Shown: in pieces, positions 5,561 to 59,000 of the stretch
Layout: each line of letters starts with the position of its first letter
Numbering within the stretch: position 1 is the stretch's first letter
Assembly: GCA_051294905.1 (NCBI GenBank)
Contig: CM119371.1
Coordinates: forward strand, 41,046,001 to 41,110,000
DNA from: Botryllus schlosseri
Lineage: Eukaryota
Direction of reading: 5' to 3'
Length of the DNA: 64,000 nucleotides
The notes under the pieces: generated by a model
The model's database searches: none
What the model saw: the letters and a program-made list of their open reading frames with translations, nothing else
Told to the model about the DNA's origin: nothing
Made by a program: the position numbers and the translations under genes

Positions 5561-7021
5561 CTGAAATAGCAAGAGTGGGGACATCAGCAGATCAGTTTTG
5601 TCTTGGCATTCGATATTTCTAGTTGTTAAATTAGACTAATTACAGTGATATGTTGGCAATCTAATTCTAATGTTATTTGTAGTTCACCTGAAAATGCTAC
5701 AGGAGAACCGTATAGCGCGAAACAAGCCAAGTTTGGTGTACAGACATTTGCCATTCTCTTAATGAGTGCAATCGGCATACAAGCTGGGCAAAGTAGATGC
5801 CGTAACTGAATTTATTTTTGAAAATTGCACCTATTTCAATTGTCGTCACTCATTCTGGGTTAGTTGAGATTATGCACCTTGCAATTTCAATAGCAGTAGT
5901 CAACGCTGGTTAAAGTTTACAGAGATAGAATGTTGAAAATGTCTGCAACGGTAAAGTACACTAACTTCTTCGCAGTCCTCAATCAGCAGGGTCGTAATGA
6001 CTCGACTCGAGTCACGACTTTCTGATGACTCGAGTCATTTACTCAAACACGGAAATGGAATGTCTCGACTCGAGTCAATCTGTGTATTGACTCAACTTGG
6101 ACTCGAGTCATTGCGTATGACTCGAACCAAGTCATATGACTCGAGACTCAGAGCAACACAACAGAGCAACACAATGACTTGGACTCGATCTTGAGTCAAA
6201 ATATCATGACTCAGACTCGACCCTCTGCTTGCTGACTTGGACTTGACTCGGTGGTGAATTGAAAATGACTCCATTTAAAAGTATAAAAGTGAGATTGACT
6301 TGTGACTTGGTTACAACCCTGCTCATTAGTCAGGCTGTAATTATAATACAGTCATGACTACACTCGGACTGAAGTTCTGAAAATCTAGAGCCCCTTAAGA
6401 TATACCATGCCTACAGGATCTGCGTCAGCCGAGAGAAAAGTAGGGAAAACAAAAAACTGTGGATTCCAAAATTTGTCCTGTTCCTCTTGTTGTGTTGACT
6501 AAAAAACAAGTGATCCTTGCGTCTCGACTCCCGAATTACCCACTTTTTAACGATACTGCTGTGTTGTTGACTAGAAGAAAACGAACGTCCGCAATACAGA
6601 TTTCGAGTCATTTGGAGCGTTCTATATTTCAGCCTGTCCAGTGTCTATTAGCCTGGCTGTCAAAGCTATAAAGGAGGACATTTTCGAATTCCTCAAAAAG
6701 GAAGACGAATGGAAAAAGGACATATGGTTACCCTGGGAGAGGAGGGATATTTTGAAAACAGACAATGTTCTAAATTCTAATAGATTAAGGTTAAATCTAT
6801 GACCAATGCCAATGCAACAAGGATCAGATCATCTTGTTAAGATCCCTATAAACAGAAACTTATGCCAGTTACGTTATATTAAAATATGGGTTAGGATAGA
6901 TTTTATTCAATTCAATTCAGTTCCGTTCAATTCAAAAATTTCATCCCGGTAACATCATATTTTGGGATACGATTGTTGATATACAATGTTCTTTTCAATT
7001 CTCTACAAGTTGCTGACAATT

Positions 7022-7055
7022 ACCCCTGACGAGTGTCAGCCGAAAATATTCGGGC
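7022..7055 (+). ncRNA. Minimal hammerhead motif, family 1, in MRPS14 intron 2 (antisense to the gene)
   Basis: acccCTGACGAgtgtcagccGAAAatatTCgggc inside a repeat copy at about 6925-7078. Confidence 0.7.
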
Positions 7056-7428
7056 TCATTTCAATATGAATATACTACCCCGAAGAAGCTTTTCAATTTG
7101 GTACCAATATGTGAATGATGACTTGCTCACAAAACGGGGGAACGGAATCACAAACAAATTTCGGTGTGTCATTGATGACTGAATGTGTGGGCATAATCTA
7201 ATCTAGTATGACGAATGGCTATTTATACAGATTTACGTCGTTTAGACGTGTGCAACAATGGCATAAAGAAACAATATGAACTCGAATGCATTCAGAACAT
7301 GGGATTAGCAGGGGAACAATTATGGATTTTAAAAGGGGTGGAGTCCTGCTTGGAAAGGTAGTAGATGGTTCTCCGAACGTACCACCTTGTCTACACCACT
7401 GGTTACTAAAATTTACAAAATACGTTAC

Positions 7429-8534: not shown

Positions 8535-11493
8535 GGCGATGTTCCAAATTATAACGAGGAAAGTCAGACACTTCGGTTTATTATACCACGTTAAATAAGC
8601 ATATCGAAGACAGTTGTAATCGTCCTTGCTTCTAGCTTGACCAAATAAATGTACATTTGATGTACTTTTGTCATGCTTGATTAATTACATATGCCGGTTT
8701 CATTACTAACGAGATAAAATGTTAGTAATCTCAGCAAATATGCTGATTTTCACGTCAGAAATATGAAGTATAATTATAATGGGCAATGTGGAGTTCAATC
8801 AGTCAGTTTCATAGATCATTGATGGGCGTGCTGGAGGCGGGTCCGCACAGTGACCAACTTGCGGCACTTTAAAAACACCCCTGTGATGCTATTTGATTTG
8901 GCCATAAAATGCACAGCTCTACCTTGGATAATGTAACATACAACCTGATATTGTCTTTTGACATTTGGATGTATTATTTATCGCATTTTACTTGTCGAGT
9001 GAATATACGAATAAAGGTTCTCTCTCTCTCTCTTTGTCGACTGATTGCCCACATTTGGCGCTAGTGAGCTCATGAGGCCTTGGCAACGGGACGCCGAATT
9101 ACTTTACCACATATTTACTACGGGTAATTTCGCTCTTTAATTGGTATAGTGTCGGCGAAATCCCTCCAGTACTCAATATTTACATCGCCTAAGCCCAGAT
9201 GAGTGTCTGATTTCAAAGACCACTCCCAAGTCGTTTCGGCATCTGCCTATCTTTCTTTCTATCGCAGTCCTGTGATCTTTTGAAATGATGAAATTTTATG
9301 AACTCTGGAAACGATTCTCCCTTCATTTCGGTATAGTGGAAATCAGAGCTGGCCAGGTGTAATTTGGGAGGTTCCATGCATCCGAAAACTTTCTGGGTGA
9401 GCGTGCGTGGTATTCGGTGACACCAATCTGGGATTTACCATGGCAACGCAACGATTTCTGGCCTTTCCCAATGATTTCTCCTGGTATGATGGAAATTGTG
9501 CTTGGTAAATGGTGGCTGCGAAATGATTCAGACCAGAAATAAACACTGTGCCCCGTAGTTGTCTTGCAATCGGTGAATATCAGGAATAATTTTGGGATAC
9601 TATGGCTTACAGTCCTTACACATGATTGTGAAATGTAGTTGGGTCAAAACATTCGATCCTGCGATATGTTCGACCAATGCGATTCTTACGGTATGCTCTA
9701 GTTGCGACTTCCTGATCGCTTTGCGTTCAGGTGTATGTAAACAATAGGTTATAGACTTATAGTTACAGGAATTAAAACCAGCGATCCCTAACTTCATAGA
9801 CGTCGTGTTCCTACTGGTGTTCCAGACGAAGTGCTGTTTTGACCTCGGATAGGGGGTACGAGAAACATTTCATGACAGCTCAAGGGGTACGAGCGCTAAA
9901 AAGAAAAAGAAACACTGCGTTAAGAAGTTTTACTACCAACGACTGAGCACTGAGATCACTATTTTATCACAACGTTAGACAGATTTGCGTGTATTTGTCT
10001 CTCCAAGCAGTCCGTAAAACTTTTGCGAATGCAACGTGAAAAACGAATGCAAATGATGTCAACAAATCTACATATGGCGGCTGTTCAGTGCTATTTCCAT
10101 CCATATCTTTTCTCGAAACCGCAGAGCATTTCTTGGGTGCCGCCATCCCTGGAAAAAAATACAGGTACAACTGTCACGGATTTGAATCTGGCTCCAGGAG
10201 TTTGAAAGATAAACCCAAACAAGACAGTGCAAAGATAGGGTCAGTTTCCACTCAAGTAGAAGCAAAGCCCAAAACTATAGATATTTATTATATTATTTAA
10301 ATAAAAGTAGCAGTTTCTAAGATATGTCTAAACTATTTCAAGTGGAATTAAAAAATGAAAGGTTTAAAAGTCCTCGAGAAATTAGATCATGGCCGAGGTC
10401 GCATAATTTTAGTAGGTAGTTAATTGGAAGTGGCTACTTCCGAAATTGCGAAATTTAAGGTGATGCAAACCCTTCCCTAACCTACTTTATACCATTTGAA
10501 AACTAGTTTGCAAGAAGCAAGCGGTTTAGCCTAGAGTATTGTTCCAGTGAAATTATTCTACAAACACAGCTACTTCAGAACAGGGTTGCAACCAAGTCGG
10601 ACGATTTCGAGTCACAAGTCAATCTCACTTTTATAGTTTTTCAATGTCTGTCTTGGCCGCTTCAATTTGCAATTCAATATAATTTAAGTATTAGCGAATT
10701 CAGTTACTTTTGTAATTAAAATCTAATTTGAAAATGCTGAAAATTTTCCAATTGTGCAAGTGTGCTCGCAACTACACTTATTGTGCCACGTATCATGTAT
10801 GTAATGGGATTTATCCAGGGTTGTAACCAAGTCACAAGTCAATCTCACTTTTGTAGTTTTGACTTGAGTCAAATCGATTCATTTTCAATTCACCACCGAG
10901 TCAAGTCCGAGTCCAAGTCGGCGAGCATAGGGTCGACTCCGAGTCATAATGTTATAAGTCAAGTCCGAGTCATTGTGTTGATTGCCCAGTTTCGAGCTAA
11001 ATCTTGTTAAACCCAGTATTTACAACTCTGCACTCATTTTCCTCGCTTTTACCAGTTTCTGGTCGCATTTTCAAGTACCAGTATTAATAAACGAAATACC
11101 AAAAGTGTGGTAACTTTACTATTCTTAGAAATTACAATGGGATGTCGTTCTTGACCATCAGAGTCTCGAGTCACGGGCAATGACTCAAGTCGAGTCATTT
11201 TTTGTATTTTGAGAAAATGACCCGGGTCAAGTCGAGTCAGCAAAAAATCACGATTCAAGTCATTACAACCTTGTTTCAAGTTGACCAAAATAACTTTGAA
11301 AATCGCATCTACTTACGGCATCATAAGTAATTCTGTGGTAGCCACAGAAGCGCAACTTACAATTTAACGAAGGCCTACAATACCTCATCCCGATATACTT
11401 CTTGAACTGACTTACACAGCGGGCATTTTCAGGGCACTCAAGTTATGAATATAAATTTGGGCATGCTTTAAAAAGATATACCACAAACACGTC

Positions 11494-11690
11494 TCACCAA
11501 TATGCTCTTTGTAGACCGGAAATTATCTCGTGGTCTGCAATTCTTCTGAAAACTCGCATATCTTTTCGACATTCCGGCAGCTGGCCTTGGGCAGTCTTGT
11601 CACTTCCTCTGCTGCAATCAACTGAAATAGAGTGAATAGGAATAGAAGCGAGCATGGGGACATCGGCAGACCAGTGTCATTTTAGCATAC
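11494..11690 (-). pseudogene. Decayed duplicate of the MRPS14 last exon plus upstream intron end
   Basis: Aligns to 5378-5620 including acceptor and intron. The exon part is 128 nt vs 183 nt (net 55-nt loss, frameshift). No duplicates of exons 1-2 recognised. Confidence 0.85.
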
Positions 11691-14600
11691 TTTCTCTGAC
11701 TAAATTGATTCATCGTGCAGAACATGGGATTAACACGTAATAGAATATTCATTGCAATGTGTTTCCAGGGTTGTAACCGAGTCACAAGCCAATCTCACTT
11801 TTATAGTTTTCATTCGAGTCATTTTCTATTCAACACCGACTCAAAGTCATGGTGCATAGGGTCGAGTTCATTTCATAGTGTTGAGACTCGAGTTCGAGTC
11901 ATAGTCTTCAGTCTGTTCGGTCTCGAGTTCAAGTTTTGTTGCACTCAGGGTTGTAATGACTTTTGAGTCCCTAGTCATTTTCGTTAAAATGGAAAATGAC
12001 TCAGCTCGAGTCAACTTGCGTATTGACTTGAGTAATTTCGCATGACTCGACGAATCTGTATGACATATTCAAGTCTCGTATATCAGGACCGATAATTGAA
12101 AGATCGACCCAGTAACTGTCAAAAAACATGTAACTTAAGAGTACAGAAGTGAATGAACCCAATACTGAACAGTGAACTCTATGACTTGGACTCGGCCCGC
12201 TGCTACCTGACATGGCGGTGAATTGAAAATGGCTTGACTTGACTCGTGTCAAAACTATAAAAGTCAAATTGACTTGTGACTTGGTTACAACCCTGGCTGT
12301 ACTCACTTAACTCTTGTGTGACATCGTATGTCTCATTTTTCTAGATTTTAAAATGTTAATTTACACTGGTAAAACAAGAAAGGCTATCAAATTGTAGCAT
12401 TCGAAAAATGACTGCAGTAGAGTCATTACAAACCTGTAGGTTATATTTTGAAATATATTCATTTTGAATATAATATTTGTATGTTGAAATTCTGTAGGTA
12501 CCTCCAAGACTATCTTCATACATTTCTTTACATTCTTCCATGCTTTCTGATCGACTCTCGTCAGGAATCGTCAATACAAGCACAAACAAATTATTGCAAC
12601 TCCATAGTAAGGTATCAGCTGCAAAAATAACAACCCAGATTGGCATGACAACAATGAAACAAGTGAAGCATGGCGATTTATTGGTCAGCCAAATGCCGTT
12701 CATAATTTTCAAGCTTTTAAGAAATTTTTTGTGCCGACATATATTTGATTTAAGGCTTTTGATAAAATTGGCTTCCAACACAATTAGGCCTAGATGGAAT
12801 GTCGAGTGACATTTTAATGAAACGGAATATTGGTTATTGCCATAGTTTGCAAATCAAATTTTGTGACACATGATGTCCTCCGTGTTGGGAACAAGTCGAG
12901 TCACATATCAAGTCATTGCACATTTTGACTAAGTCAAAGAAGGTCACATTTTCGAAATACGAGCCACGATTCAATTCATTGGATTTGGCAAAATGATTGA
13001 GTGACAGATGGAGTCACTATTTAATCCGAAGGGCGTATTATCACTCACACATACCAAGTTCTAACTGCTAATCTACTTAAGTAATCTGCATCGGGTCAGA
13101 CTATAGTTCAGCCAAAATGGCGGATGGAATAAGAAACATAAAACGTTGGAACAAATTGACATGATGCAATGCAAATCCCACCCGCACATCCATTCCATCA
13201 AGTAAAAATCCAGCCTACACTAATTGTTACCGAGTAACATAAACCTCTAAACTATAAAATATCCATTCGATTGAAATCATACAAGGAATTCGTTAAGGAG
13301 CACTGAACAGTAGGGTTGCCCAACAAGAACTTTTTATTACGGGGGATTCACTAATTCAATTGTTTGGTTGCATAAAAATGAACGCCACACACAAAATTTG
13401 GCTCTACTCAAACTGTGAACGCAGAGGACTGAGAGGAGTATAAAATTTTGAATTTACTATAAAAAAAACGACAAAAAATTATAATTTTACTATCAACCCA
13501 AAGAAATTGTTGAGTTGTCTACAAAACCGATGGAAAACAAATTAGACGCAATTCCAACCCGTAGAAGCGATGTTATTTGAGTTTCTCATTCATAATTCTG
13601 GGAGTACCCACCGTCCAGGCTATTTTTGCGATTCAACCGAAATTGTGAAGTGCAATAACGTCGCTTTTACCAGTTGCAAGCCAGCAAAAATTGTTAAACA
13701 TCATTCTTTTAGACAACTTAATTCAATAACTTGAAATAGAGTCAAATTTGGTGTGCAGCATTTTTTTTTAATCAGTGAATCTCAGGAATCTGAAAAAGTA
13801 GGGCGTTAGCTATGGCACAAAATGTGAATGACAGCAAATATAACAATTACTAACACAGTCAGTTTTGTGTTATCAGTCCTTTACAACTCCTATACTTGGG
13901 ACAATATTCAAAAATACAGTAGCACAGGGTCTGTTGAACTTGAAACATATAGTAACCACTAAAACACACAATTCCTGACAATTCAATAGGAAAATAAGGC
14001 ACATCAAAATTTAATGGCGGACCCCCTCCAGTAGTTTCTCTGCAAAGCTTCAAGCACAATATAAAAAATCTTGGCAACCAATTGCAATACTTAACTACAG
14101 TGCAAATATAATCAACCGTCGCGTTAATGTTAGAGCTGGGAAAAATCGAATATCTGAGTGATTCGATTCTGAATAGAGTATTAGGCTTCGAGTCGAGTGT
14201 CACTCGGTATTACTTCACAACAGTATGAATGATGTGGTAAGTTCAAATATGTACCTTTTATGTAACCAGAAAGAATATAATACCAGTTCTACAGCACATT
14301 AAAATAATTTTCAAAGATAATGAATGAATTTAGTCAAAGTTAATGTTAGCTGCATATATTGTAGGCCGCCACTGTGTACCACTGGGCTCATTAGGCCAGG
14401 ACATGATTAATCAGCGCTTGTACATTAGGGCTCTTCAAAAATGACTTTTCTTCTCAAATCGTACTGGCTACTTGATAAAATTGTTAGGTTACCTAATTTA
14501 AGTCTACACACAAAATTTGGTCCAATTCCAGCCAGTAACCGCTTTGCTACAGGAGAAGTAAGTTTCAATTTATTATATAAAAATAAATAATAAAAAATTT

Positions 14601-15060
14601 GAAAATTTTCTGTGTACCCCATGAAAGTGTTAGGCTGTCTATCGAAACGATGCTCACCAAATTTGGTTGAATTCCAACCAGTGGAAGCGGAGTTATTGCC
14701 AACGAAAAATTTGGATTTGAATGAAATAGTATTTACGGTGACCGATTCTTGGTTTATTTATTATAGTTGTGCTCACAGTAAATACTATTCTATTCAAATC
14801 CAAATTTTTCGACGGCACAGGTAATTTATTGTTTTGATATTATAATTAATTTAGAGAATTACTAAGAGGCTAACAGCATTCCACAGTGAAATATAGTATT
14901 GAACCATCAATTTTCATTGATAAATTACCGTAACTCTTCAGGAGCATATAATTTCAGTACCCAAAAAAATCATCACCTCACCACTCGACCCGAATCATTG
15001 CAATTAACACTCGATTCAGATTCGAGCACTCAGATCATTTTACCCAGCTCTAGGCGAGAT

Positions 15061-16197
15061 TCAACTCAAATGCAGATATCCAGCTGTGAACGCAGTAAAT
15101 ATCTTCATCAGTCTGTGTACGGTGTAAAAGTCGATATTTTCACCGTTATCTGTGATCAAGTGCCAGTTTTGCGGAAACGGATAAGTGATCATATGAAGAA
15201 TGGGAACTCTCCTATGAAGAAAAGGGATGTGATCGTCTTGTATGTTGCCTCTCAACGGTGTAACTTGAAAATATTGTATGTTATCATTTAAAGCCTTTTC
15301 AATTCTGCTGATCTCTTTGTAATGCCTAGGAACATCGGTACCACTTTTTAGAATGAAACTAGGATTCTTTTCGCCGAGAAGGTCCAAAAGAACTAACAAA
15401 TCGATCGAATGCAGAGTGTTTTTATCGGAATTCACGCCCGTCGGCCATGATTCCGATTCCCATTTTTTCGCGAGTTCACGAGCCCCGTACAGTGAATCCT
15501 TCGCAGTCCAATCAACGATCGCTTCTTCTCCGTCGAAAAATATCAGCTGCAAGGTTAAATCTGAATGGGAACTCGACAGCATCTGATTGAGGGAATTAGC
15601 AATCTCCACTAACATAGCGCATGGTACGGCTGAATCGGTAGCGCCGAGAAAACCTTCGGGAGTCACTTTTGAATCATAATGACACGCTAGAACTAGACGC
15701 CTGCGTGCAACTGGATTTTTAGTGGCGATCACGTTTGTGAATGTGATCGGATATTTCGAATAACTCGCAGGCGGCATATCTTCGAACGAATGCTCCTCCA
15801 CACTCCATCCAAGCTCTTTCATCGTACGGGAAATGTAATTCTTCACCTTCGTGATATTCTCGGTGCCTGGCTTCCGTATTATCATGAAATTTGGTAGGAT
15901 ATCATTAGTCAGTCGATCCATATTTATGAGATTAAACAGTGATTTCATCTTTTTTCTGGATAAAGTCTGAGCATTCCATGTATGTTTTGCTTCGTGCCAA
16001 AGTACACCCTCAGTGGCCTGCGTTTCCGTTTCCTTCTGAGACAATGAGAAATAAAGGACAATAGCGATACATAGGAGTATCCCGAAAACAGCAAAGAATA
16101 TTCGGTGCTTGGGTCTTCTGGGAATCATCGATCCCATATTTTGAAATTCGGTGCTGCTATTTTTAGAAACTTGCGTTTTACCGCGATGCCTGGCCAT
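15061..16197 (-). CDS. QPCT: Glutaminyl-peptide cyclotransferase (M28 family), type II membrane-anchored isoQC/QPCTL-like, single coding exon
   Basis: 378-aa ORF with LACHYDSK, GATDSAVPCAM, LIFFDGEEA, DSLYGAR, LLDLLG, IQDDHIPF and PFPQNWH motifs. Basic N-tail followed by hydrophobic IFFAVFGILLCIAIVLYFSL. Confidence 0.93.
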   Translation of the reverse strand: MARHRGKTQVSKNSSTEFQNMGSMIPRRPKHRIFFAVFGILLCIAIVLYFSLSQKETETQATEGVLWHEAKHTWNAQTLSRKKMKSLFNLINMDRLTNDILPNFMIIRKPGTENITKVKNYISRTMKELGWSVEEHSFEDMPPASYSKYPITFTNVIATKNPVARRRLVLACHYDSKVTPEGFLGATDSAVPCAMLVEIANSLNQMLSSSHSDLTLQLIFFDGEEAIVDWTAKDSLYGARELAKKWESESWPTGVNSDKNTLHSIDLLVLLDLLGEKNPSFILKSGTDVPRHYKEISRIEKALNDNIQYFQVTPLRGNIQDDHIPFLHRRVPILHMITYPFPQNWHLITDNGENIDFYTVHRLMKIFTAFTAGYLHLS

Positions 16198-17014
16198 AGG
16201 TTTGTTGGTAATTTCTAATTAGTTCACTGAAAACAACGTACAAGTTTCGTTGATATTGTATCACTGCAGCATCACAATAATTAATTTACTTCCAAGTAAT
16301 TTGTGTCGAATTGCACTCTAATCATAGGCGATTGGCATACGATACAATAAATACACACAGTTGATTGAGCTCTCTAGTACGGCTTGGCAAAATCAGAATT
16401 AGAGAGAGAGAGAGAATTTATTCGGATCCATGAACATTGATAATACATAGATAGATAAATACAAAGCAACAATTCAGAACCAGCGAAGGGATCGGGAGAT
16501 CATCGAGTCAGCCACTGCCAGGCTATGATAATGCTGTAATGCAGTGATTCCCAAAAGTCTGTGTGCCGCCACAGGTGTGGCACGAACATTGTCAGATTTT
16601 AGGATAAGAACTATAGGCTAATATTAATATCTATTTTGAAAAAGGCCTGGAGACTATAGAACATGCAACTTAAAGGCGCTTTACCTTATTCAACAGCTAA
16701 TAAATAAGCACATGTGACAATGAAACCAATTATGGCATCGTAATAAATCAAGAATAACAGCTATATAAATTGTAATTGGAATTACCCACTAAAAAATTTC
16801 TGCAAAATAAACTAGGCGACAGCTTATTCTTTCTAAAGAAACTGTTGCCTATTTTCCTGGTAGCACTTGCTACACATCTGCAATGAGCTGAAACAAGTCG
16901 TCATTAGACCAACGTACATGTGGATATTTTTGACATCCGAATGTGCCATTAACGATTTCCGATTCACATTATATTTTTGATATACAATTAAATAGTATAT
17001 TCATATTGAAATGA

Positions 17015-17048
17015 ACCCGAATATTTTCGGCTGACACTCGTCAGGGGT
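17015..17048 (-). ncRNA. Minimal hammerhead motif, family 1 (inverted twin)
   Basis: Exact reverse complement of 17132-17165. Confidence 0.75.
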
Positions 17049-17131
17049 AATCGTCAGCAACTAGTAGAGAATTGGAAAGAACATTGTATATCTTTCCAAT
17101 CTTTCCAATTCTCTACTAGTTGCTGACGATT

Positions 17132-17165
17132 ACCCCTGACGAGTGTCAGCCGAAAATATTCGGGT
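17132..17165 (+). ncRNA. Minimal type I hammerhead ribozyme motif (Penelope-like pLTR), family 1
   Basis: ACCC-CTGACGA-G(tgtcagc)C-GAA-AATATT-C-GGGT: intact CUGANGA/GAAA/UH core, 4-bp stem I, 1-bp stem II, palindromic stem III. Confidence 0.75.
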
Positions 17166-18721
17166 TCATTTCAATATGAATATACTATTTAATTGTATAT
17201 TGAAGTTCTGTACCTCCACGAAGCTCTTCAATTATATTTTTGCAAGAGTCATATGGAGTGTTGACAACTCGGCGCAGATACACCTCCGCCACGCCTATCG
17301 ACGATCAATGAAGCCGAACCCTATGCCGCGTAATTCAATTTAATTTATCGCTAAAAATTTGATCATTTCAATACACCACAACCACAAGATTGCGATACGA
17401 TGAAAGATAGGACGGTGTAGAAACGACTTGGAATAGTCCTCGAAATCAAACACCCACCTGGCCTAGGCGATGTAAAAATGCTATTAAAATACTGTGGTAT
17501 AATGTGGTTAGTTGGTTACAATACTCAACCCATTTATTACTTGGTAACAATTTTCTTGGTGCCCAGTTTCTATTGGTTAATTAGTTGCAGTTACTGTGAA
17601 TGCCGGCTTCCTAGTTTCTTGATATTGTTTTATATTTCATCATTCGGCTAGTGTTGTGTTGTTTCGTTCTGTTCAGGCGCAGAAAGCGCGGACTTATATG
17701 TTGCAACAATTATCCATGGTAGAGCTGACTTGCTGATCTCCTCTTCGCTACAGGAGGGTTCCACATCAGCATAAAGTTTACTCCATTTTCTATTCATGCA
17801 TGTTTCTGTCGAACAGAATAACCGATTCTCTCTATCTTTCTCTAATGCAACCGAAATTAGTAATTAATTAAGCATGCATGAGAGAACAACAGATCACATT
17901 TGGGTTATTTGGTCTGGCTGCAGTGCTAGGGGACTGCAGAAAGCGCGGAAATAGATAGCGCCGAGGAGGCCAGGTAGTGTTTAATGGTCAGTGATCGAAT
18001 TTTCACCTCTAACGTACTTCATAACTTCATTCCTGGACTTTTTACGACTATTCCGTGCTGATTTTAGGCAAGGTAGTGTGTATCAGGGTTGGGTAGCATG
18101 GGAAGGGGGATATTCGGGCTGGGTAGCATGGGAAGGGTTCAAGGGGGACATTAGGGTTGAAGGTGGGTTAGGGTATCCCAAGATTAGGGTTGGGGGTGAT
18201 GGATATTAGGGTTGGTAGGGGGATATTAGGATGGGGGAAGGGAGGGCCCAGTGTGCATATATTTTCTAGTACCCTGCTTATGATAATGAACTCTGATTTG
18301 ACAGGAGCTGATGCAGACTTTGATCTTAGTTGTATTTCTTCCTAATCCGAATTTAATTCAATTTCAAAGTTTCCGCGAGTTTATTAATTCTAATTCTAAT
18401 TAAAAGTTTCTTGGGGTACAGAATTTCAATATACATTTAAATAGTATATTCATATTGACCGGGTTGCAATCCCGGTACGTTTAGCGTAATATCTTTGGTG
18501 TGCCAAGACGGTTCTCAGCGTCACACCTGGTGTGTAGTCAGTAGAATCTTTGGTGTGCACGAGACACCGATTCCATATTGGCATATTGAAATGAACCTGA
18601 ATTTTTTTACCGACACTTGTCAGGGCTAATCGTTAGCAAGTATGATAGAGAATTGGAAAGAACATTGTATATCAACAATCGTATCACAAAATATGACGTC
18701 AGCGGGATTAAATTTTGAATA

Positions 18722-21129
18722 CCGTAATTTTCCATGTGTAATACGCCCTCATGTAGGCTATAATAGGACCCAATGGCTTGTAGATTCTGGGGCAAAGTCT
18801 GTATACTCGTATACTTGCAGTACATGCGTAATTGTCGATTATACAAGTTTCTTGTGTTGACGAACTTGTTCGTGTGATGAGTTACGACGGTTATGTTTTA
18901 GTATTATTGGAAATCGATTAAACGATTGTAGACAGAAGCCATCGAGGACCGAGAGGCGATAGTTCGGCCCGTCAGCGATATCATGCTCACCAGACCTATT
19001 GTAGAAGAAATTGTTCAGGCCAGTGTAACCAGGCCTGTTGCAGATGCGGCTGTTTAGGCCAGTGATGATATCCTGCACACCTGGCCTGTTGTTGACGAGA
19101 TGGTTGCCAGTGAACTCGGCCCTTGACGAACTCGGCCTATTGAACTCGGCCCATGAGCCATGACGAAATCGGCCTATGACGAACTCGGCCCGTGGGGAAT
19201 TTCTTAGTATTAATGATTATAAACGTCGTAAATTGTATTATTTGTCATAGAAAATGGTTAATTTGGGAGCGATGGACATGTCGTACGAATGCTGGGGGGA
19301 GGGCAGTATTGCAGTTCTCGGAATTGGAAATTTTACTTGCCGCTGTCGAGATTGCCAGTGAACTCGGCCCATGATGAACTCGGCCCATGACGAACTCGGC
19401 CTGATGACGAACGTCACCGACGAGATAAATCGAACTAGCAAGGATTGTGCGCTCGTGCGGCAATCAATGGCCTAATGTCGCTCGCGTACAAATGGCAAAG
19501 TAACTCAGCGGGAGCTTGCGAGCTGTCCGGCAGAGCAGACGAATCGCGATAAATGGCATAGCCCAACACTGATAATACAAATCACTAGGCCGAATGATGG
19601 ACTGTGATGCGTGATTGACAAAAACATGAACACTACAAAAAATAATTAGACAAGTTTGGTCTGAAATCGATTTTTTAGCAGAAAAAGTCTTAAAGACAAA
19701 TTAGTCTTACCAAGTAATTTCTGTCTCAAATCGATTTTTTAGCAAAAAAAGTCTTAAAGACAAATTAGTCTTACCAAGTACTTTCTGTCTTAAAAGTAAG
19801 ACCGGAATTGATCGAAAACAGTAGGGGTGCTTTGGGGGCATCCTTTTCAATGCTAGGGTCTGAGCGAAGGGGAAGCATGAGAGAGACCAGAATTTGCAGT
19901 GTTGGGATGATACTGTACTAAGGAGTTCACACGATATTCACTAGATATAGTTATCAAGGTACATGCCACTTACTACTCACATGTACTATTCAGATCAATA
20001 TATATATGGTTGTCTGAGTCGAAAATAGCATTTATGGTGAGTGGGTAAAATGAGACCAAAAATACTGCACAATTCGTCTTGAAAACAAGACCAAAAAAAC
20101 TGAAGCATTAAAAATTATCTCGATAAACTAGCTGTGTCTGTGAAGTCCTTAGATAAGTATTGTCCCATGGTCTCTCTCACTCCCCCCCTTCACTCACAAC
20201 CTAACATTGAAAAGGATGCCTCCAAAGCAGTGCTTCTATTATCGATCAAGTTGGGTCTTACTTTTGAGATGGAAAGTACTTGGTAACACTAATTGGTCTT
20301 CAAGACTTTTTTTTCTAAAAACCGATTTGAGACAGAATGTAGGCCTACTTGGTAAGACTAATTGGTTTTGAGACTTATTTTTCTAAAAAATCGATTTGAG
20401 ACCAAATTTGTCTAATTTTATGCTCTTGGTCCATGTCAACTTTCCGGTCTCATTTTCAAGACCACAAACCATGTTGTTTCTTGATTAGCGAAATCCGACT
20501 TAAAAACAAGACCAAAAATACTGACACATCAAAAACTGTCTCAAATAGCCAGTTATGTCTTATGCTCTTGGCCCATGTCAACTTTCCGGTCTCATTTTTA
20601 AGATCACAAATCATGTCATTTCTTGATTAGTGAAATTTGTCTTAGAAAAAAGACAAAAAATACTGACACATCAAAAACTGTTTCAATAAGCTTGTTATGT
20701 CTTAGAGCTCCTGACCCATGTCAACTTTCCGGTCTCATTTTTAAGACCACAAATCATGTTGTTACTTGATTAGCGAAATTTGTCTTAAAAACAAGACCAA
20801 AAATACTAACACATCAAAAACTGTCTTAATAAGCACAATATGTCTTATGAGATGCTTTTTATTGGTCTCATTTTTAAGACCAAATAATTGTGACAATTAT
20901 ATATGGTCTTAAACAGCTGAATCAGTCTCAATTTTAAGACCTCAATTCATCAGTGAGACTGAAATTGCTGAAAATGAGACCAAATCATCCTCATTTCTTA
21001 AATTTGAGACCAAATTTGTCTAATTTTTTTTGTAGTGAAGAACGGTGCGTTGTGATTTCTAGTTCTTTTTCAAGGGAGATTTTTTTCAAGAATTCTTTTC
21101 CCATGTGCATTATGCATTGATAATTACGG
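18722..21129. mobile_element. Tc1/mariner-pogo type non-autonomous element (TA-CCGTAATTTTCC ends) carrying nested insertions
   Basis: Ends CCGTAATT...AATTACGG. Same family at 45172-45988, ~27470-27798, ~32680-33335. Confidence 0.65.
19631..21037. mobile_element. CACTA/EnSpm non-autonomous element
   Basis: TIR CACTACAAAAAA...TTTTTTGTAGTG; 2-bp AA duplication relative to the empty site seen at 27661. Subterminal AGAC/GTCT repeats, three ~142-bp tandem units (20418-20850), internal inverted repeat. Confidence 0.85.
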
Positions 21130-46379: not shown

Positions 46380-47263
46380 AGACATGGAGTCAAATACAGT
46401 AGCTAACAATCAGATATTAAAGATCTTCGGTGCGATGTTTCCAAGAAAGAGTTTTCACAAGGCGTGGACCCGAAGCATCATTCATACGACCATGTGCATG
46501 CTGGCATAGGAAATCATAATTACGATTGTGGGAAAATATTTACTGGGACGGATTGCCTCGAGCGTCACATGAATACAGATACTGGCATCGAAAAGCATAT
46601 ATGTGAAAAAGCATTTCTTACAAAATTATTGCCTCAAGCTTCATTTGGATATGCATAATGGCATCAAAAATCATACATGTGTCATATGTGGTAAAGCTTT
46701 TACCCAGAAGGATGGCCTCAAACACCATGCATATGCATGCTGGCATAAAAATCATGAATGCAATGTATATGGAAAAGCTTTTACTCAGAAGAGTCACCTC
46801 AAGGTTCATATCGATACACATGCTGGTATAAGAAATAATGAATTTGATATATGTGGGAAAACATTTACTCGAAATGCTGACCTCAACCATCATGAATATT
46901 CATTTTGATATCAAAGATCATATATGTGGGCGAGCATTCACTAAGAAGAATCCACTCAAGCCTCATATGAACATGCATATTGGTGTCGAAAACCACATAT
47001 GTGATGTATGTGGAAAATCATTTACTCTGAAGAGTGGGAGCAGAAGGCATATGTATAATCATGCTAGCATTAGAAATTACGAATGTGAGCTCAGTGGTAA
47101 AATATTACAAAGCGTGCTGGGATTCAAGATTCATATGAAAATCCATGTTGGGTTGAGCGATCATCAATGCGAGATTTGTGGGATGTCATTTGTTAACAGG
47201 AGTATATTGAAAAGACATCGACCGATTCACATTGTTGCTCACAATGTTGCGGTTAAGGTGTGA
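46380..47263 (+). pseudogene. C2H2 zinc-finger pseudogene (HxGIKNH linker type)
   Basis: Finger fragments split over three frames (ORFs 46464, 46603, 46838); many Cys/His losses. Confidence 0.85.
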
Positions 47264-47714
47264 TTGCTTGAAATCATTTACAATGTAAAAAGTCGTAGAA
47301 ACTTCACAGTGAATTGATATGGGGAATGCGGCTTCTCATTGTGTTCGTGAGATCCTATTGCTTTTAAAGGTGAGGAGAAGGTGACTATGATGTCTTATTT
47401 AGACTCTCAATATGATTCTTGTTCGCATTGTCACAGTTACCACTCCTAAATTCCGATTGTGACCTCATTAAAGGATGATGTTTGTGAAAGTGTTTTAGTA
47501 CTCGGTAATATCTGTCTACAAAAATTACGATTTCTCGTATTCCAATTATGAACAAACTGTATTTGCAATTGTTATAGTGCAGCAATATGATCATATGTAA
47601 CATAATGTGTTGGTGACCGTGCATTATCTCGTTGTAATTTCAATGTGATCAGATGTGATACTGACAATGTATTATTGTATTGACAGGAGTTATAATTAAG
47701 TCTGGTAAACTTGT

Positions 47715-48582
47715 ATGCAACACCGCAGCAGGTCTAATATAACTTATAGACGCTCAAATTCCACGCAAAAACTCGAGTCCCAGATGAGCTATATTCGCCG
47801 GGCCTTTGCAGACTTCGAATGTCCAATATGTGGCAAGAGCTACAAAGGAAATTACATAAAGACCCATGTGTACAAACACTATGGAGTAAAAAAGTACAGT
47901 TGTTTCATTTTCGGTTGCAAGTTTACGGTAAAACATAATTTGGAATATCACATGAATGTTCAAAGGTCATAGAGAACTTTCGGATAGAGAGACGTATGAA
48001 TGTGAGGTATGTGGGAAATGTCTACATTCCAAAACTGGCCTGGGTAGACATATGAAGTCGCACGTGGGTATAAATGTCACAGAGTGGAATAGTGACAGAG
48101 AACTAGCAGATAGAAATAGGTACGTTTGTGAGGTATGCGGAAAATGTCTACATACGAACTCCGGCATGCACAAACACGTGAAGTCGCACTACAGAGTAGA
48201 AAAGTACAGTTGTTTCATTTGTGGTAGCAAGTTTACCACAAAAAAGGATTTTGATCATCACATGGGTGGTCATAGAGAGCTTTCGGAGAGAGAGACGTAT
48301 GAATTTGAGATATGTGGATAATGTCTACGTTCGAAAACCGGTCTGGGCAGGCATGTGAAGTCGCACGTGGGCATAAAAGTCACGGAGTGGAATGGTCACT
48401 GAGGACTTTCAGATGGAAATATGTACGCTTGTGAGCTGTGCGGAAAATGTCTAGGCACAGAGAGCGGCATGAGATTGCACATCAAGTCTCATTCGGGTAT
48501 AAAAGACTACGAATGTGATATCTGTGGCAAGAAGTTCGTGGTCAGGTCTCGATTATATAGACACATGGAGACACACAGCTAA
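47715..48582 (+). pseudogene. Chimeric ZF-B/ZF-C zinc-finger pseudogene with internal duplication
   Basis: 5' part matches ZF-B (MSYIRRAFADFECPICGKSYKGNYI), the rest matches ZF-C. 7-nt insertion frameshift near 47958; premature TAA at 48319 and TGA at 48400. Confidence 0.85.
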
Positions 48583-49018
48583 TAACAGTAATGAATGATC
48601 ATAATCTGGGACTTGAATACAATCGATTCGCGTGTAACAGGAGGTGTTGAAATTAGTCTACAGTGAAACATGCAACTCAGATTGTGAAATGGTGCTGCAT
48701 CTGTTTATGGGCTTCTATCTGACAATGAACACAAGTATTGTCTTGTGAGCCATAGTTCTTTCGTTTTACTAAAAAATACGCTACAGTGTCACGCCTTCCG
48801 AATTGTGCCTTAAAATCAAAGAAACACCGACAATTTGTGTGCTATATTTTTGCTTTTAACCGGATTTTCAATGGTGCTCCCATGCAAGCGGCAATGTATG
48901 ATGAATATAATCCATTTAAGACAGCCTATTCTTGATCTGGGTATCTTTGTGGTGCCAACTACAATCTGTACACTGTGTCTGGTATTCTTGAGTAATCCGC
49001 CTGCTGTTCACCCTTCAT

Positions 49019-52079: not shown

Positions 52080-52279
52080 ATGTAGTCTCTTTACGTTAAT
52101 GTAATACTCATTGTCGAAACTATGATACTGTAGGCTTCATGTGTCGGGTTCATTCAAATGTTCACTTTGTTGTCAGGTTACGTAATCAACTACCGTAATG
52201 TTGACGTAATCGAGGGTGTGATTTATGAACTGCTGAGAATCGGCTTCATCTACAACAATCATTTTCATAAGCGTGAAGC

Positions 52280-52642
52280 ATGAGTCTCCTTCATTGTAGC
52301 CTGCAGCTTTCGGATTGCCCGATATGCGGAAAGACAGTATCTACAAAACATACTTGAAACTGCATGTTCTCGGAAACTTTGGAGTAAATAATTACGATCG
52401 CCCATTTGTAGTCGCAAATTCACCACCAAAACAGGTTTGGCATATCACATAAATGGTCACAAAAACTTTCGGATAGAAACAGGTACGTTTGTGAGGTGTG
52501 CATAAGATGTCTAGGCACGAAGAGCGGCATGAGATTACCCACGAAGTTTCACTTTGATATAGAAGACTACGAATGTGATGTATGTGGCAAAGAGTTTGTC
52601 TTCAGCACTGATTTGCATAAACACATGGAGACACACAGCTGA
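52280..52642 (+). pseudogene. ZF-C paralog pseudogene
   Basis: Colinear with 43131-43500, including about 200 nt upstream and the acceptor at 52176; frameshifts from about 52351 onward. Confidence 0.85.
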
Positions 52643-53930
52643 TAACACTCATGAATGATCAGAGTATGGAACTGGTTTAGAGTCGACTCGGGTATAATGG
52701 AATCTGCTGAAATTAATCTGCAGCGGAATTCGCAACTCAGATTGTGAAATGGTGTTGTGTGTGCTTGTGGGATTATTTCTGATATTGACTACAAGCTTTG
52801 TCTTTTTAGCATTAGTGTTTTTTTGTTTTATGGAAAAAAACAAAACGAATGTTGCGCCGGTCGAATCAGGCCCTGAAAGCAAAGCTACCTAGACGATTTG
52901 TGTGCTCATCTTTGATTGTATCTTGATTTTCAGTGCTGATCCAAAGCAGGTGGCGATGTATGATGAATATAAGCCATTTTAATCTGCCTGTTTTTGTACT
53001 TTGTATCGTTTTTGTGTAACTGACTACGGAAGTTTCCGAACACTGTTTCTGGTGTTTTTGCTCTTCAGGTGAAACCAATAACAAAAATCTCCTTCTGTAA
53101 AAGGTAGACTGCCTTTAAACAATAGCATACTGGCCCTTTTATCTCCCACAGAGTTGGTTTTTTCAATGCGGCATAACGGCGATTCTTGCATCCTCTGAGC
53201 TTCAAATTTTCTGCAGGTTGCAACCTAAATGAATTTTCGCTTGATTATGTTCCCTGTATTTCTTCGTACACGCATCATATCGAGAAGTGTACCCTATCAA
53301 CCTCTGTCACAACATTCAGCATTGCCGTGGATACTTGATCGGTCGCATTGCTGCGGTTTACGAGCTACCAATGGAAGGGGTTGTCTTTTCTGTGCAAAAT
53401 GTAGGATTGACATCTTCTGCTGTGTTGTAATATGATACGGTGGCATGAACTATTCGGTCTGCCACAGATACCAATACTGTATGTTTTGCATGCTTTTACT
53501 CCTGTCTCTCAATAGTTTTGACACAATACCATTGGATTTGCCTTGATTAGTGATTGTGTTGTACTGGTTAGAAACTGTACGTGCCGGTTCGTCCCCCGAA
53601 AATACCTATGTGTCAATTGCACTGTGTACAATCTCAGGACGTTCCATTTTTAAGAATATTTGCCATCTTTTATAGATATGAGATGGTACCACTGCCATAC
53701 TGTCATTGAGCCCAATTTCATGTGGTGAATAGTAATATTTGACTGAAAATCCATTGAAATTTAGCATTATTATTCCAGAAGTTCGGTTAATATTTATGCT
53801 CGAAACATCAACATAAAGATTTGAACTCCCCTCCATCAACCATTTTGTCGACCTGAGACGACCATATTCACGACTTGGAATATTGTAGTACAATTTTCTG
53901 GAAACATGTTGCCGTGACATCAAGCTTCAT

Positions 53931-54890
53931 ATGGATATCCATACTGGAATCAAGAATCATGAATGTGTTATATGTGGTAAAGTATTTACTAGGACGCACG
54001 GCCTCAAGAACCACATGGATATACATACTGGAATCAAAAATCATGAATGTGATATATGTGGTAAAGTATTTACAAGGAAGCACGTCCTCACGTACCACAT
54101 GGATATGCATGTTGGAATCAAAAATCATGAATGTGATGTATGTGGTAAAGCATTTACTAGGAAGTACAGCCTCAAGTACCACATGGATATGCATACCGGC
54201 GTCAAAAGGTATAAATGTGATAAATGCGGGAAAAAAAGTACCAGTCCGACGCAACACGAGCATCATATGAATATGCATGCTGGAATCAAAATCCATGAAT
54301 GTGATATTTGTGGGAAGAAGTTACGTTATAAGCAAACACTCGCGTTTCACATGAACACGCATTTTGGCATCAAAGCCCATAAATGTAAGATTTGTGGGAA
54401 AGAATTTAATCGAGAAATTATACTTAAGCATCATATGAATATGCATGCTGATGTCAAAAATCATGAATGTTTCATATGTGGTAAATCATTTACATCGAAC
54501 GAGCACCTCAATCGACATATTCATACGCATACTGGCGTCAAAATCCATGAATGTGATATTTGTGGGAAGAAGTTCAGTTATAAGCAAACATTCACGCTTC
54601 ATATGAACGTGCATTTAGGCATCAAAAACCATAAATGTGATATTTGTGGGAAAGGATTTTGTCAAGGAAGTCAACTTAAACGTCATATGAATACACACAC
54701 TGGTATCAAAAATCAGAAATGTGATATATGTGGGAAAGCATTCACTAGTAGGAGATACCTCGCAGCTCATGTTGAAACACATGCTCTTGTCAAAAACCAT
54801 AAATGTGATATTTGTTGGAAAGCATTTACTCAGAAGACTCACCTCGAGCGTCACATGGTTGCATGCTGGCGTCAACAATTGAAAATGTGA
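53931..54890 (+). CDS. C2H2 zinc-finger ORF, 10 complete fingers + 1 truncated; probably truncated at both ends
   Basis: 319-aa open array with HxGIKNH linkers. Starts mid-finger (KLH|MDIH; in-frame TAG at 53886) and the last finger is frameshifted. Confidence 0.7.
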   Translation: MDIHTGIKNHECVICGKVFTRTHGLKNHMDIHTGIKNHECDICGKVFTRKHVLTYHMDMHVGIKNHECDVCGKAFTRKYSLKYHMDMHTGVKRYKCDKCGKKSTSPTQHEHHMNMHAGIKIHECDICGKKLRYKQTLAFHMNTHFGIKAHKCKICGKEFNREIILKHHMNMHADVKNHECFICGKSFTSNEHLNRHIHTHTGVKIHECDICGKKFSYKQTFTLHMNVHLGIKNHKCDICGKGFCQGSQLKRHMNTHTGIKNQKCDICGKAFTSRRYLAAHVETHALVKNHKCDICWKAFTQKTHLERHMVACWRQQLKM

Positions 54891-56018
54891 TGCACATTGG
54901 ACTGGGGGTTTTCATCAAATTACTGCTAATTCTTTTCATATTTCGAGTTTCGAATCGTGTACGAAAACCCATCATATATTAAACACCTTCGCTGTGCCTT
55001 ACGTTATAAATTGTCATCTCTTTTCTCAGTCTGGAACGCCATGTTAGTTTCTCTGAAACATAATCCGAGTCGGTGATGGGCATCACGAGATCGTCATTAT
55101 TGCAAGGCAAATTGTGTGATCTACGGTCATGGTGCAAACTGCTTAATACTTTCTGTATAGCAAGAAAGTGCCAAATGTGCTCGCCATGGCGCTCTGCTCA
55201 TGAGTTTAGTGACTGCATTCTTGAAGCCAAATTTGGTTCAATTCTAACAAGTATAGGGCTCCGCAGATCCAATTGAATTTTTTAATTTTAACTAGAAAAT
55301 TGAAAAAAAATTAAATTTTTCTGTCAAGCCCATGAAATTGTTGAGCTGTCCGCAGATACCATATGCAAAACAAATTTGACTCAATCCTTGATTGGTGGAT
55401 AATCCGAGGATTATCAACGAAAATCTCCAATTACTCAGCTTCTACTAGTTGGAATTGAGTCAAATTTGTTTTGCATGGTCTCTGAAGACAGCTCAACAAT
55501 TTCATGGGCTTGACAGAAAAATTTGAATTTTTTTTTTCAATTTTCCAGTTTAAATTAAAATATTCAATTGGATCTGCGGAGCCCTATACTTGTTAGAATT
55601 GAAACAAATTTTGTGTGCAGCGTTTTTTAGGGCAGCCTGACGATTTAAGAGGTGACCGGCTTCAATCGAAAAAAAAGTTTTTTAGGGAACAGCCCTACTG
55701 TACAGTACATAGATTAAAAAGAATTCTGCATCTAAATTTTCGTACTACGTAGAATCACAAGTAGGCGACATACTGAATCATTCATAGTACTGCACTCTAT
55801 TATCAAGTTTTCTGATACATGCATTATTCTGAAAACTGCGATCATGGGCCAGGATTGGTGTTGTGTAATATACAATTTCTTGTCGGGTCTTGAAGCCATG
55901 TAAATAAACTTACTTTGGTCCAGATTGATTTTCATACCAGCGACCAACGTATGCATACAAATTTACAGCTATCTTTTCGGTGGAAATACATTTGTATAAT
56001 ATATTCATATTGAAATGA

Positions 56019-56052
56019 ACCCGAATATTTTCGAGTGACACTCGTCAGGGGT
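56019..56052 (-). ncRNA. Minimal hammerhead motif, family 1
   Basis: Reverse complement reads acccCTGACGAgtgtcactcGAAAatatTCgggt. Confidence 0.7.
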
Positions 56053-59000
56053 AATTGTCAGCATCCACCGACCCTCGACCTCGGTTACCTTCTTCTCAGG
56101 CTGCCGTTCGTTCATTGCCCTACATGTGATCTGAAGGCACTAAGATGAACTCATACAAACACGCCTTAGTTGTTCAAGGAGGAGATTTAACTGTTATCTA
56201 AATAACATAAATGACCAGACCACTGAGGACTTTGAATAGACCAGAAGGGGGAAAACTATTTTGTCCTGTCCACGAAAGCAGAAACGTTATAAAAATATTG
56301 ATGGACTGCCTCTGAAATCTTGACTTGACTGACATGATATTGAGGGCGCTTTTCAGCTTTGACGTTCAAGACGACGCACTGTGAGAGATTAGGGTTGCTA
56401 AACATTCCAGAAAGTCAAAGCAACAACTTTTTCAAAAAAATTGCCCGCTAGGCGCGATTTCAAGTTGCCAGATATCTTGATTTGAGGGTACTCTTTCTCC
56501 AAGAAAAAATACGCATTATTTATAGAAAAGGTCATACCGGCGTTGGCCATTATCACGCCACGATGCACCAAGAAATATAAAGTTTTAGGCCACGTAACAT
56601 GCGACTCCGATAAGTGTGCCAGAACGATTGGCAGTGAGAGAACCTTTGCCGAAAAGGACTGCGCTTATGCTGACCGAAAACTTGTTATATATAAGCCTAC
56701 AAAATACCAGGGTTGTAATTGTAACCAAGTCACATGCAATGTTCCCTTTAATTTTTTACGATTCTGCGCGCACTAACCAACCCACTGCGCTGTACCTTGG
56801 ACTTAGAAAAAGGTCATCAGTCTGGATGTTTTGTGTGCAACTTGGAATTTCTTTGCCCAGAGACCGTGTAAGCTCTACGAAATTGCGCACGTGCGCAGCT
56901 TAGACTTGAAGGAACATTGGTCACAAGTCAATCGCACTTTCATAGTTTTGACCCGAGTCAAGTCGAGTCATTCACCACCGAGTGAAGTCCAAGTACAAGT
57001 CATCGAGAAGAAGGACGAGTCCAAGACATTGTATTGACTGCTCAGTTTCCAGTTAAAGTCTTGTTTAAACCCACTTTTTATAGGTCTAAAACATTGTTGA
57101 GTGATATCGAATAGTTCGCATTTATATTATACTAATTTCCATCACTTTCATCAGTTTCTGGTCGAATTTGGAAGTACCATTATTAATACATGAAATCCAA
57201 AAAATGTGGTTACTGAACCATTCTTTGAAATTATAATGAAAACTGGGTCCTGACCTGGCGGAGTCAAGTCGAGTCATTACATAATCGCGACTCGAGGTGA
57301 GTCATTACAACCCTGCTAAATAGGCCTACTTACAGGTTAAATCGTCCATAGGCGCCTAAATGACTGACGCCGAAAGTTACATTCTTGGAAATCTTAACCT
57401 CACAAGACAAATACCATCCCGCAGGAAAAATATGTGTCAGTGAAGAAATACCAATTTGAAATCGTTTGTGTCTTTTAAATCAGCCTGATTTAAACCAGAA
57501 CCCTATGCACAGATCGTTATTTCCACGTATATCATGTCGTGTATATAGGCTTGCCATATTTTGGAAATGTAAAAAGAGGACACTTTTTCAGAAATTTCAG
57601 ACATACAAAACTGGGTTGACTAAAAAAAAAAGGTCTTCTTCTCGCTCAGAGCTCAAAATAACGTTTTTCTCTCCACATTGCCAGATGGATGACCAAAAAA
57701 AAAGGGTCTTCTTTTCGCTCAGAGCTCAAAATAACGTTTTTCTCTCCACATTGCCAGGTGGATGACTAGAAAAAAAAGAAAAAAAGGGCGCATATCACTC
57801 GCATTTTCCTCTAAATTTGACCTAAATTTTCAAAAAAGAGGACAAAAGGGCGTCGTCCAAGGACACTTTCAAAAAAGTCGAAAAAGAGGACAAATCCTCT
57901 TAAAAGAGGACGTATGGTAAGCCTAGTGTGTATGCCGCAGTAAACATCAAGGACAAAAATATACAACGTCCTGACCTAACTACTTTGTCATTGACTCTCT
58001 CTGCCTCAGTGGCGAAATCGCGACATAGCACTCTGGAAAAGTAGTAGGATTGTGCCGCTTGTAATATATCGTCTCCGGTCCTGGCTAAACAAAACACGAT
58101 CGGGACTGTGTGAAGATTGAACACTGAACATGAACAGAACAATTTCATCAGACTTTGCACGTAAAACGACCCAACTGTTTCAGAGAATATCGAATAATAT
58201 GTTTGCAATCACAATCAAGAAGGTAGGACATGGTAGGGTAATTTGTTCGAAAACGTCAGTTCAGCATGTTTAATGACTGCAGTCTTTTTTTAAAAATTTT
58301 ATGCAACGACTCGCCTTAGTCGCCTGAAAGTGTTTTTGAAAGTATAAACAACTAAATCGAACTGCTGAAACAGAGGACATTTTGGCATTTTTAGCGCCCT
58401 CGGGGCACCATTCACTTTTATTTGAGAAAAAGAGGACAAATCATCCTAAAAGAGGACATATGGTAAGCCTACCGGCATTAATCCAAGCCTAACCAAAATC
58501 CGAGATAAGTTGTGTGAACATCCGAGATAAGTTGTGTGAATTTACTGGTTACACTTTTAATCGACGAAGTATAATGCAATGAAATAAATTCTCTTTTTCT
58601 CTCTCTCTCTCTCTCTGCTCGTCGAATCGCTGGGCGTATCGGAGGCGTTGCCCCGTGCTTCTGTGAAAGCGGAGGATAGGCCCTGCATCATTGTATCAGT
58701 GCTATTGACTCGTGGGATGGTGGCAATTGCCGGCTAAGGCCTGTCAGATATTACGGCGCTCGTTGCTAATCTTATTATCATGCATTCTAGTTCTAAGAAA
58801 CACGTAGAAGATAGAGGTCGAATATTCGGGTGTCCAGTAACTGCTTTTTCTCTCTTTCTGTGGACAAGTTATGGTCATGCTGACTTAGAAAGTGTTGTAA
58901 CACGAGAAAGAAGCGTGAGGAGCTGTATTTTTAATCCAATAATGTTTTCCAAGGCTATTAAAAGCGCTTCACTTGTTTGTTGCTCAGTAAACATATGTCT

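Follow-up and report, generated by a model that had tools for sequence, protein, structure and literature searches.

A 64-kb stretch of Botryllus schlosseri contig CM119371.1 (41,046,001-41,110,000, here called the window and numbered 1-64,000) holds seven short repeats with intact or broken cores of a predicted hammerhead ribozyme. From what element do these repeats derive, and what kind of hammerhead do they carry? An earlier note on the window had read them as a non-autonomous, ribozyme-bearing retroelement family with a link to Penelope-like elements. Comparison with the 495.5-Mb genome assembly leads us, with high confidence, to another reading, namely that the repeats are 5′-truncated tails of a young, coding Penelope-like element whose predicted hammerhead has a 1-bp stem II and a likely pseudoknot of 6-7 bp. 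The window DNA is animal-like, with a GC content of 39.6%, zinc-finger clusters and numerous short repeats.

The repeats and the full-length element

All seven repeat copies were confirmed at about the places that had been given for them. Compared with L063, a natural full-length copy of the element that served as reference, they show 81-100% identity over 78-147 nt, and their 5′ ends lie at varied positions between -109 and -15, counted from C3 of the hammerhead core. The supposed fixed unit of ~150 bp does not exist; the copies differ in length because of 5′ truncation. Thirty loci were fetched with copy 1 (3,315 candidates, best 40 scored), and several of them share 500-1,000 nt upstream of the repeat, the translation of which is the end of a GIY-YIG endonuclease (EN). 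Longer genomic copies grade upstream without a break into GIY-YIG and then into reverse transcriptase (RT) coding sequence, and complete tandem units of ~2.69 kb were found among 20 larger loci. Locus L062 contains an 845-aa RT and GIY-YIG open reading frame (ORF) flanked by hammerheads 2,683 bp apart, and the ORF of L063 encodes 848 aa. Given that longer copies run into GIY-YIG and RT coding sequence and that intact tandem elements are present, the repeats are not a separate non-autonomous family; they are 5′-truncated 3′ ends of a protein-coding element that is intact elsewhere in the genome. The suggested Penelope link, for which copies adjoining RT/GIY-YIG coding sequence were sought, was borne out.

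The element protein matches Pfam RVT_1 (E 7.7e-9) and carries GLxF and DKG motifs. In its EN region, the 50 aligned homologues all share residues C731, C733, Y737, G739, R748, H752 and H788, and 49 of them have E820. No CX2-5CxxC zinc finger was found in the RT-EN linker when alignment blocks were compared with the motif descriptions of PMC8557442. The CCHH residues in EN, the DKG motif and the lack of a linker zinc finger, which together separate Penelope/Poseidon from Neptune, Nematis, Hydra and Naiad, all apply here, so that by these descriptions the element appears to be an EN+ Penelope-like element of the Penelope/Poseidon type. The Pfam search of the protein did not call GIY-YIG; PF01541 is annotated in 2 of 120 homologues among the matches listed, and a PDB sequence search returned one weak RT match.

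The family is very young, since all 150 scored EN matches (best 150 of 8,551 candidates) are 97-100% identical. Five of these lie in open frames of 857-860 aa, and one tandem of four units at 2,692-bp spacing was found among them. A four-unit head-to-tail array with 860-aa open frames in two units lies at G000:C16:20952024-20960592 (L098-L101). The hammerhead starts 105 nt past the stop codon, and the ATG of the next unit follows the predicted cut site at a distance of 14 nt.

Among neighbouring core pairs less than 3.5 kb apart, 13 of 16 are head-to-head (first 100 cores listed). By their 3′ ends, copies form two classes about 35-40 nt apart; of 116 distinct ones, 57 end at ORF positions +17 to +35, 54 at +48 to +62 and 5 elsewhere. 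Partial tandems forming pseudo-long terminal repeats (pLTRs), 5′ truncation, an inverted partner and a 30-40 bp tail are all present. The element, its truncated copies, the head-to-head pairs and the two 3′ end classes are ordinary, known Penelope features. An inverted partner and a 30-40 bp tail have been described for Penelope-like elements (PMC8557442), and tail classes have been attributed to RT starting at either of two internal sites (PMC11167929). Penelope/Poseidon elements share with the present one a single ORF with RT and C-terminal GIY-YIG, the CCHH, DKG and GxxF motifs, partial tandems, 5′ truncation, the inverted partner, the optional tail and a pLTR hammerhead near the ORF start (PMC8557442; PMC11167929). 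In the anole Penelope-like element, in contrast, the cut lies 26 nt downstream of the ATG (PMC11167929), whereas here it is predicted upstream.

The predicted hammerhead and its likely pseudoknot

In copy 3, a predicted pseudoknotted type I hammerhead occupies 17122-17165 (+), as modeled from the sequence and from covariation across families. Its stem I pairs 17132-17135 with 17162-17165 (4 bp), the core lies at 17136-17142 and 17152-17155, stem II consists of the single pair G17143-C17151 (G10.1-C11.1), and the palindromic stem III (AAUAUU) spans 17155-17160, with the cut predicted after C17161, the last base of UUC. The 7-nt loop II (17144-17150) is complementary to 7 nt directly upstream of stem I (17122-17128), and these two strands would form the pseudoknot.

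The type I core (C3-A9, G12-A14, A15.1-U16.1 and H17, together with stems I-III) is complete, and helix III is of the palindromic, unstable kind. The type I core, the palindromic stem III and the predicted cut after UUC agree with the earlier description of the repeats. A helix II of several bp with a bulged base after A9 is not found here; there is one G-C pair and no bulge. A very short stem II had been regarded as the norm for Penelope-like elements, a view that does not hold for PMC4209133: Cervera & de la Pena describe helix II in these elements as longer than usual, and in none of the 56 rows of their Fig. S3 is it shorter than 3 bp. The sequence makes it likely that the pseudoknot of 6-7 bp replaces stem II in the present element, and that stem II is short because of it. 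A helix IV hairpin, as in the pistol-like form, was not found, the pseudoknot strand being separated from stem I by only 2-4 nt with no conserved enclosing stem.

The exact 26-nt core occurs in 4,294 copies in the genome, compared with 0 for a reversed control, and is therefore not a product of chance. An Rfam scan gave no hammerhead family at E<=1 (7 matches, all unrelated).

Related families and covariation

A pattern that excluded the young family's own core gave 901 genome matches versus 4 in the control, and a second pattern gave 745 versus 4. The matches belong to other Penelope families with 57-67% protein identity; their pairing keeps its register, and its base changes are matched. The genome contains three or more such additional families (L238 = G000:C2:20025500-20035400, L241 and L249), every one with the same pseudoknotted hammerhead; one of them contains a full-length tandem at 2,722-bp spacing, and U3 core variants occur in some. 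A fourth pattern family (loop ACCAG..., L113/L244-L248/L255-L257) was rejected, having no stem I and, at all 8 of 8 loci, no Penelope-like protein closer than 7 kb. Loci L244-L248 and L255-L257 represent an unrelated high-copy mobile element that contains three internal repeats, and the likeness of one of these repeats to the hammerhead core is fortuitous.

Among 79 metagenome loci carrying related RTs, 17 have the motif. Eight of these motifs have a 1-bp stem II, with a pairing of 5-7 bp at the expected place in six and a mismatch in two; another eight have a long helix II, and one is likely a chance match.

For covariation, 11 same-register representatives of related families were retained, 3 of 14 rows having been dropped as out of register with a longer linker. 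In the 11 rows, 94.9% of cells are paired, compared with 24-41% in slid controls; with the 3 mis-registered rows included, the value is 85.6%. Two-sided changes were found in 9 of 16 pairs (pseudoknot 4/7, stem I 4/5, stem III 1/3). None of 500 shuffles reached the observed covariation, a count that is not a probability because the rows are related. The stem III palindrome alternates between AAUAUU and AAGCUU, the latter being present in 9 of the 10 other same-register representatives. Across families that are 38-70% identical in protein, all catalytic positions either are invariant or show known variants (C3/U3 and C17/U17). The covariation analysis proposed in the earlier note thus yielded compensatory changes in both the stems and the pseudoknot.

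In an RT tree of 16 elements, sampled by similarity to the element's own protein, the 10 elements with the pseudoknot-type motif form one side of a branch with 100/100 support and the 6 with a long helix II lie opposite. Six of the 17 motif loci (L142, L143, L144, L154, L182 and L211), in which the motif does not adjoin the ORF end, were left out of this tree.

Conservation within the young family and the individual copies

Copies of the young family were collected with an anchor outside the motif; 83 were found, and 77 were kept at >=70% identity. All 11 core bases are retained in 54 of the 77. Variability at non-CpG positions is 2.6% in the core versus 5.4% in the flanks, and with base matching in 57 distinct rows it is 3.5% versus 6.3% (resampling P 0.003). 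The core therefore varies less than the flanks across genomic copies, as had been put forward as a check.

In the window, all 11 core nucleotides are kept in four of the seven copies (1, 2, 3 and 7), the number given previously. Copy 1 (6936-7077, +) is a 5′-truncated 3′ end, or pLTR, with 94% identity to L063; its C3 is at 7026, the predicted cut follows 7051, and the pseudoknot is formed by a 5′ strand at 7012-7018 and loop II at 7034-7040. Copy 2 (16980-17092, -), 100% identical to L063 with C3 at 17044 and the predicted cut after 17019, is the inverted short-tail partner of copy 3 (17100-17235, +), the long-tail member of this head-to-head pair. The two form an inverted repeat of 101 nt with 100% complementarity, and copy 3 ends ~60 nt inside the start of the element ORF (ATG at 17176). 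Copy 7 (55986-56063, -; C3 at 56048) has a pseudoknot of only 5 bp as a result of two changes in the loop.

The cores of the other three copies are broken. Copy 4 (18402-18720, -) is decayed, with G8 and the GAAA strand altered. It is split by an unrelated insert of ~116 bp at 18459-18574 with a 7-bp target duplication; this insert bears a terminal GC hairpin, similar on the + strand to a tRNA T-arm/B-box, and is possibly a fragment of a short interspersed nuclear element (SINE). Copy 5 (21187-21332, +), also decayed, has a 13-nt deletion that removes the pseudoknot 5′ strand, the 5′ strand of stem I and C3.

Copy 6 (24331-24416, +) carries C3->A and an end of stem I altered on both sides. The ACCT/AGGT change and the C3 mutation described for it are present, but compensation in stem I is not supported. 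The G->A half lies at a CpG, and the same G->A occurs alone in copies 4 and 5; among the 77 genomic copies, C->T was found in 4 and G->A in 1, never together. For these reasons the double change provides no evidence of selection, and on sequence grounds it is likely to reflect CpG decay plus coincidence, that is, independent decay of the two sides.

An older Penelope remnant in the window

Sequence comparison revealed an older, related Penelope remnant at 12520-12847 (-). The decayed GIY-YIG C-terminal end of this older family lies at 12698-12847 (-; 34% identity, E 7e-4), so that the statement that no RT or GIY-YIG ORF is visible in the window needs correction. It is followed by a degenerate hammerhead at 12558-12564 (-; C3 at 12564), with its pseudoknot in the same register as that of the young family. 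Across 12458-12847, the remnant comprises the EN end, the degenerate hammerhead and an inverted tail fragment. L346, a relative of the older remnant, has kept the pseudoknot, with an additional pair changed in a compensatory way; its stem I has 7 bp.

Other features of the window

A 385-aa ORF near copy 2, at 15061-16218 (-), was considered as a candidate RT and rejected on the basis of a Pfam match to Peptidase_M28. The frame is uninterrupted, with its first Met at 16197 and the head-to-head Penelope pair ~780 bp upstream, and almost no RNA depth was found over it in 2 runs. Its product, judged by motifs, presumably resembles a membrane-anchored glutaminyl cyclase. C2H2 zinc-finger exons or genes with 84-bp periodicity cluster at 33702-35225, 42993-43514, 46526-48704 and 52142-54890 (+), and Pfam zf-C2H2 was matched for two ORFs. 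Abundant GACTCGAGTC-rich repeats resembling miniature inverted-repeat transposable elements (MITEs) occur in direct and inverted orientation at 909-1250, 4160-6330, 10814-12300, 42105-42204 and 56970-57255. A second MITE-like inverted-repeat family with an internal duplication of ~145 bp was found at 13442-14824, 41487-41732, 55229-55646 and 63431-63749, and tandem arrays are present at 59904-60304 (23 bp) and 20418-20849 (142 bp).

Discussion

Our sequence comparisons argue for the pseudoknotted, dimer-type hammerhead as a well-supported structural variant for which self-cleavage is predicted. As in known Penelope biology, the element protein would nick AT-rich DNA, and target-primed reverse transcription would begin within the first ~60 nt of the ORF, at either of two sites, giving rise to the two 3′ end classes. 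An early stop of synthesis and the addition of an inverted copy would then leave short solo and head-to-head fragments. In a tandem transcript, two hammerheads may pair through the self-complementary stem III, with the pseudoknot docking stems I and II and leading to cleavage after UUC. The window copies themselves are most likely inert passengers, given that solo copies have no partner, the head-to-head pair would form one long hairpin, and the core is broken in three copies.

Several observations weigh against this reading. The predicted minimum-energy fold of the monomer is inactive, with loop II pairing with the core itself, and published Penelope hammerheads cleave poorly or in a protein-dependent manner (PMC4209133, PMC11167929). 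The families from this genome were selected with a short-loop pattern, and the representatives are related, so that their covariation counts are not independent events. Within the young family, pseudoknot positions do not clearly differ from flanks (4.3% versus 5.4%). The clade placement comes from motifs and not from a tree holding named references. RNA reads from 4 raw runs with the same species label, of which 3-6% each was sampled, showed no accumulation of ends at the predicted cut, the UUC site at which RNA ends had been proposed as a check, in fragmented cDNA libraries that are ill-suited to show it; one read mapping had three end pile-ups, none at 17019 or 17161. There is also almost no RNA depth on the 5′ half of the ORF, and pLTR sequence is far more abundant. 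A sequencing-run search listed no RNA run among the holders of the sequence, a result that counts in neither direction. Reads over the pLTR lie on both strands, and 68-98% of them continue into unrelated sequence. Such RNA fits passive read-through of dead copies and would say little about cleavage.

The pairing between the upstream strand and loop II might instead be inhibitory, as a hairpin or as a binding site for protein, and prevent folding of the core, so that the ribozyme stays off until the element protein refolds it. The same pairs can form a plain 7-bp hairpin (-7.8 kcal/mol) that encloses the core, and in the anole Poseidon element the hammerhead needs protein to cleave, its cleavage being dispensable for insertion in vitro (PMC11167929). 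We nevertheless consider this explanation unlikely, because the pairing is accompanied by covariation or invariance of stem I, of G10.1-C11.1 and of the palindrome, and a hammerhead that was tested and found fast combines a pseudoknot of 6 bp with a stem II of 1 bp (PMC3088659; PMC11300833). Distinctly less probable is that the motif is a non-catalytic relic retained as a DNA or RNA recognition sequence for the element protein. RNA ends at the cut site were not seen, and the very successful Naiad elements are without hammerheads (PMC8557442), but the catalytic positions have stayed invariant, apart from the known variants, across the divergent families described above. A separate non-autonomous hammerhead mini-element (SINE-like or retrozyme-like) copied by Penelope proteins, to which the short, non-coding state of every window copy and the richness of RNA in pLTR over ORF sequence would point, is very improbable and largely refuted: window copies have scattered 5′ ends, longer copies merge continuously into the ORF, copy 2 is identical to the full-length unit, no tandem array of short units was found in the window or in the genomic loci fetched, and the RNA reads behave as in passive read-through.

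The pseudoknotted hammerhead of a coding Penelope-like element, the reading that we prefer, can be compared with several known systems. Animal non-LTR (long terminal repeat) retrozymes are likewise non-coding, hammerhead-bearing sequences derived from pLTRs (bioRxiv 10.64898/2026.07.22.740005); they form tandem arrays of short units, whereas the present repeats derive from a coding element as truncated copies at dispersed positions, with neither a fixed unit of their own nor a short tandem array detached from coding sequence. For metazoan Penelope-like elements, PMC4209133 reports that thousands of solo minimal hammerheads stem from truncated elements, that pairs on opposite strands occur, that helix III is palindromic and that dimers cleave weakly. 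These minimal hammerheads share with ours the type I core, G10.1-C11.1, a short stem I, a palindromic stem III implying a dimer and the predominance of solo copies. Their consensus has a helix II of 3-8 bp, usually with a bulge after A9, and no recognised tertiary contact (PMC4209133, PMC7761336), whereas here helix II has 1 bp and no bulge and is accompanied by a covarying pseudoknot of 6-7 bp. An absence of tertiary loop contacts in Penelope hammerheads is also stated in PMC7761336.

Pseudoknots occur in about 40% of hammerheads, including one fast case with a 1-bp stem II (PMC3088659), and a related pseudoknot form has been solved with an added helix IV (8YDC; PMC11300833). Such hammerheads resemble the present motif in the 1-bp stem II, in the engagement of the loop in a helix of ~6 bp with a strand flanking stem I, and in the tolerance of purine-purine pairs at the helix end (PMC3088659; PMC11300833). 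They differ in having a stable stem III and in being active as monomers, and the extra helix IV and A-minor triplex of the crystallised form (PMC11300833) are absent here. Pseudoknotted hammerheads are thus already known, and novelty for Penelope elements is uncertain. No description of a pseudoknotted Penelope hammerhead was found in the literature searched, the coverage of which did not extend to Lunse et al. 2017 and Weinberg 2015; none is described in the available parts of PMC6765202, PMC10085705, PMC6466107, PMC8490949 and bioRxiv 10.64898/2026.07.22.740005, and the supplement of PMC8557442 has 0 matches for 'pseudoknot'. The pseudoknot tallies of Perreault 2011 (PMC3088659) left out repetitive type I cases.

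A further-reaching proposal is that this Penelope lineage has an undescribed hammerhead type, with a pseudoknot in place of helix II and a dimer-only stem III, that would be fast, protein-independent and active only in tandem transcripts, leaving an RNA that has no cap and whose leader ahead of the RT start codon is 14 nt long. We put this forward tentatively, as a possibility that is more doubtful than not. Reviews present Penelope hammerheads as minimal and slow, with no tertiary contacts, and the modest interest of the present case lies in its covarying pseudoknot. Whether such ribozymes cut, and whether they control translation or insertion, could well be asked in this very young family, which has intact tandems and for whose host RNA data exist. 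A fast, dimer-only pseudoknotted hammerhead throughout the lineage would, if true, provide a clean system for the cellular role of Penelope hammerheads.

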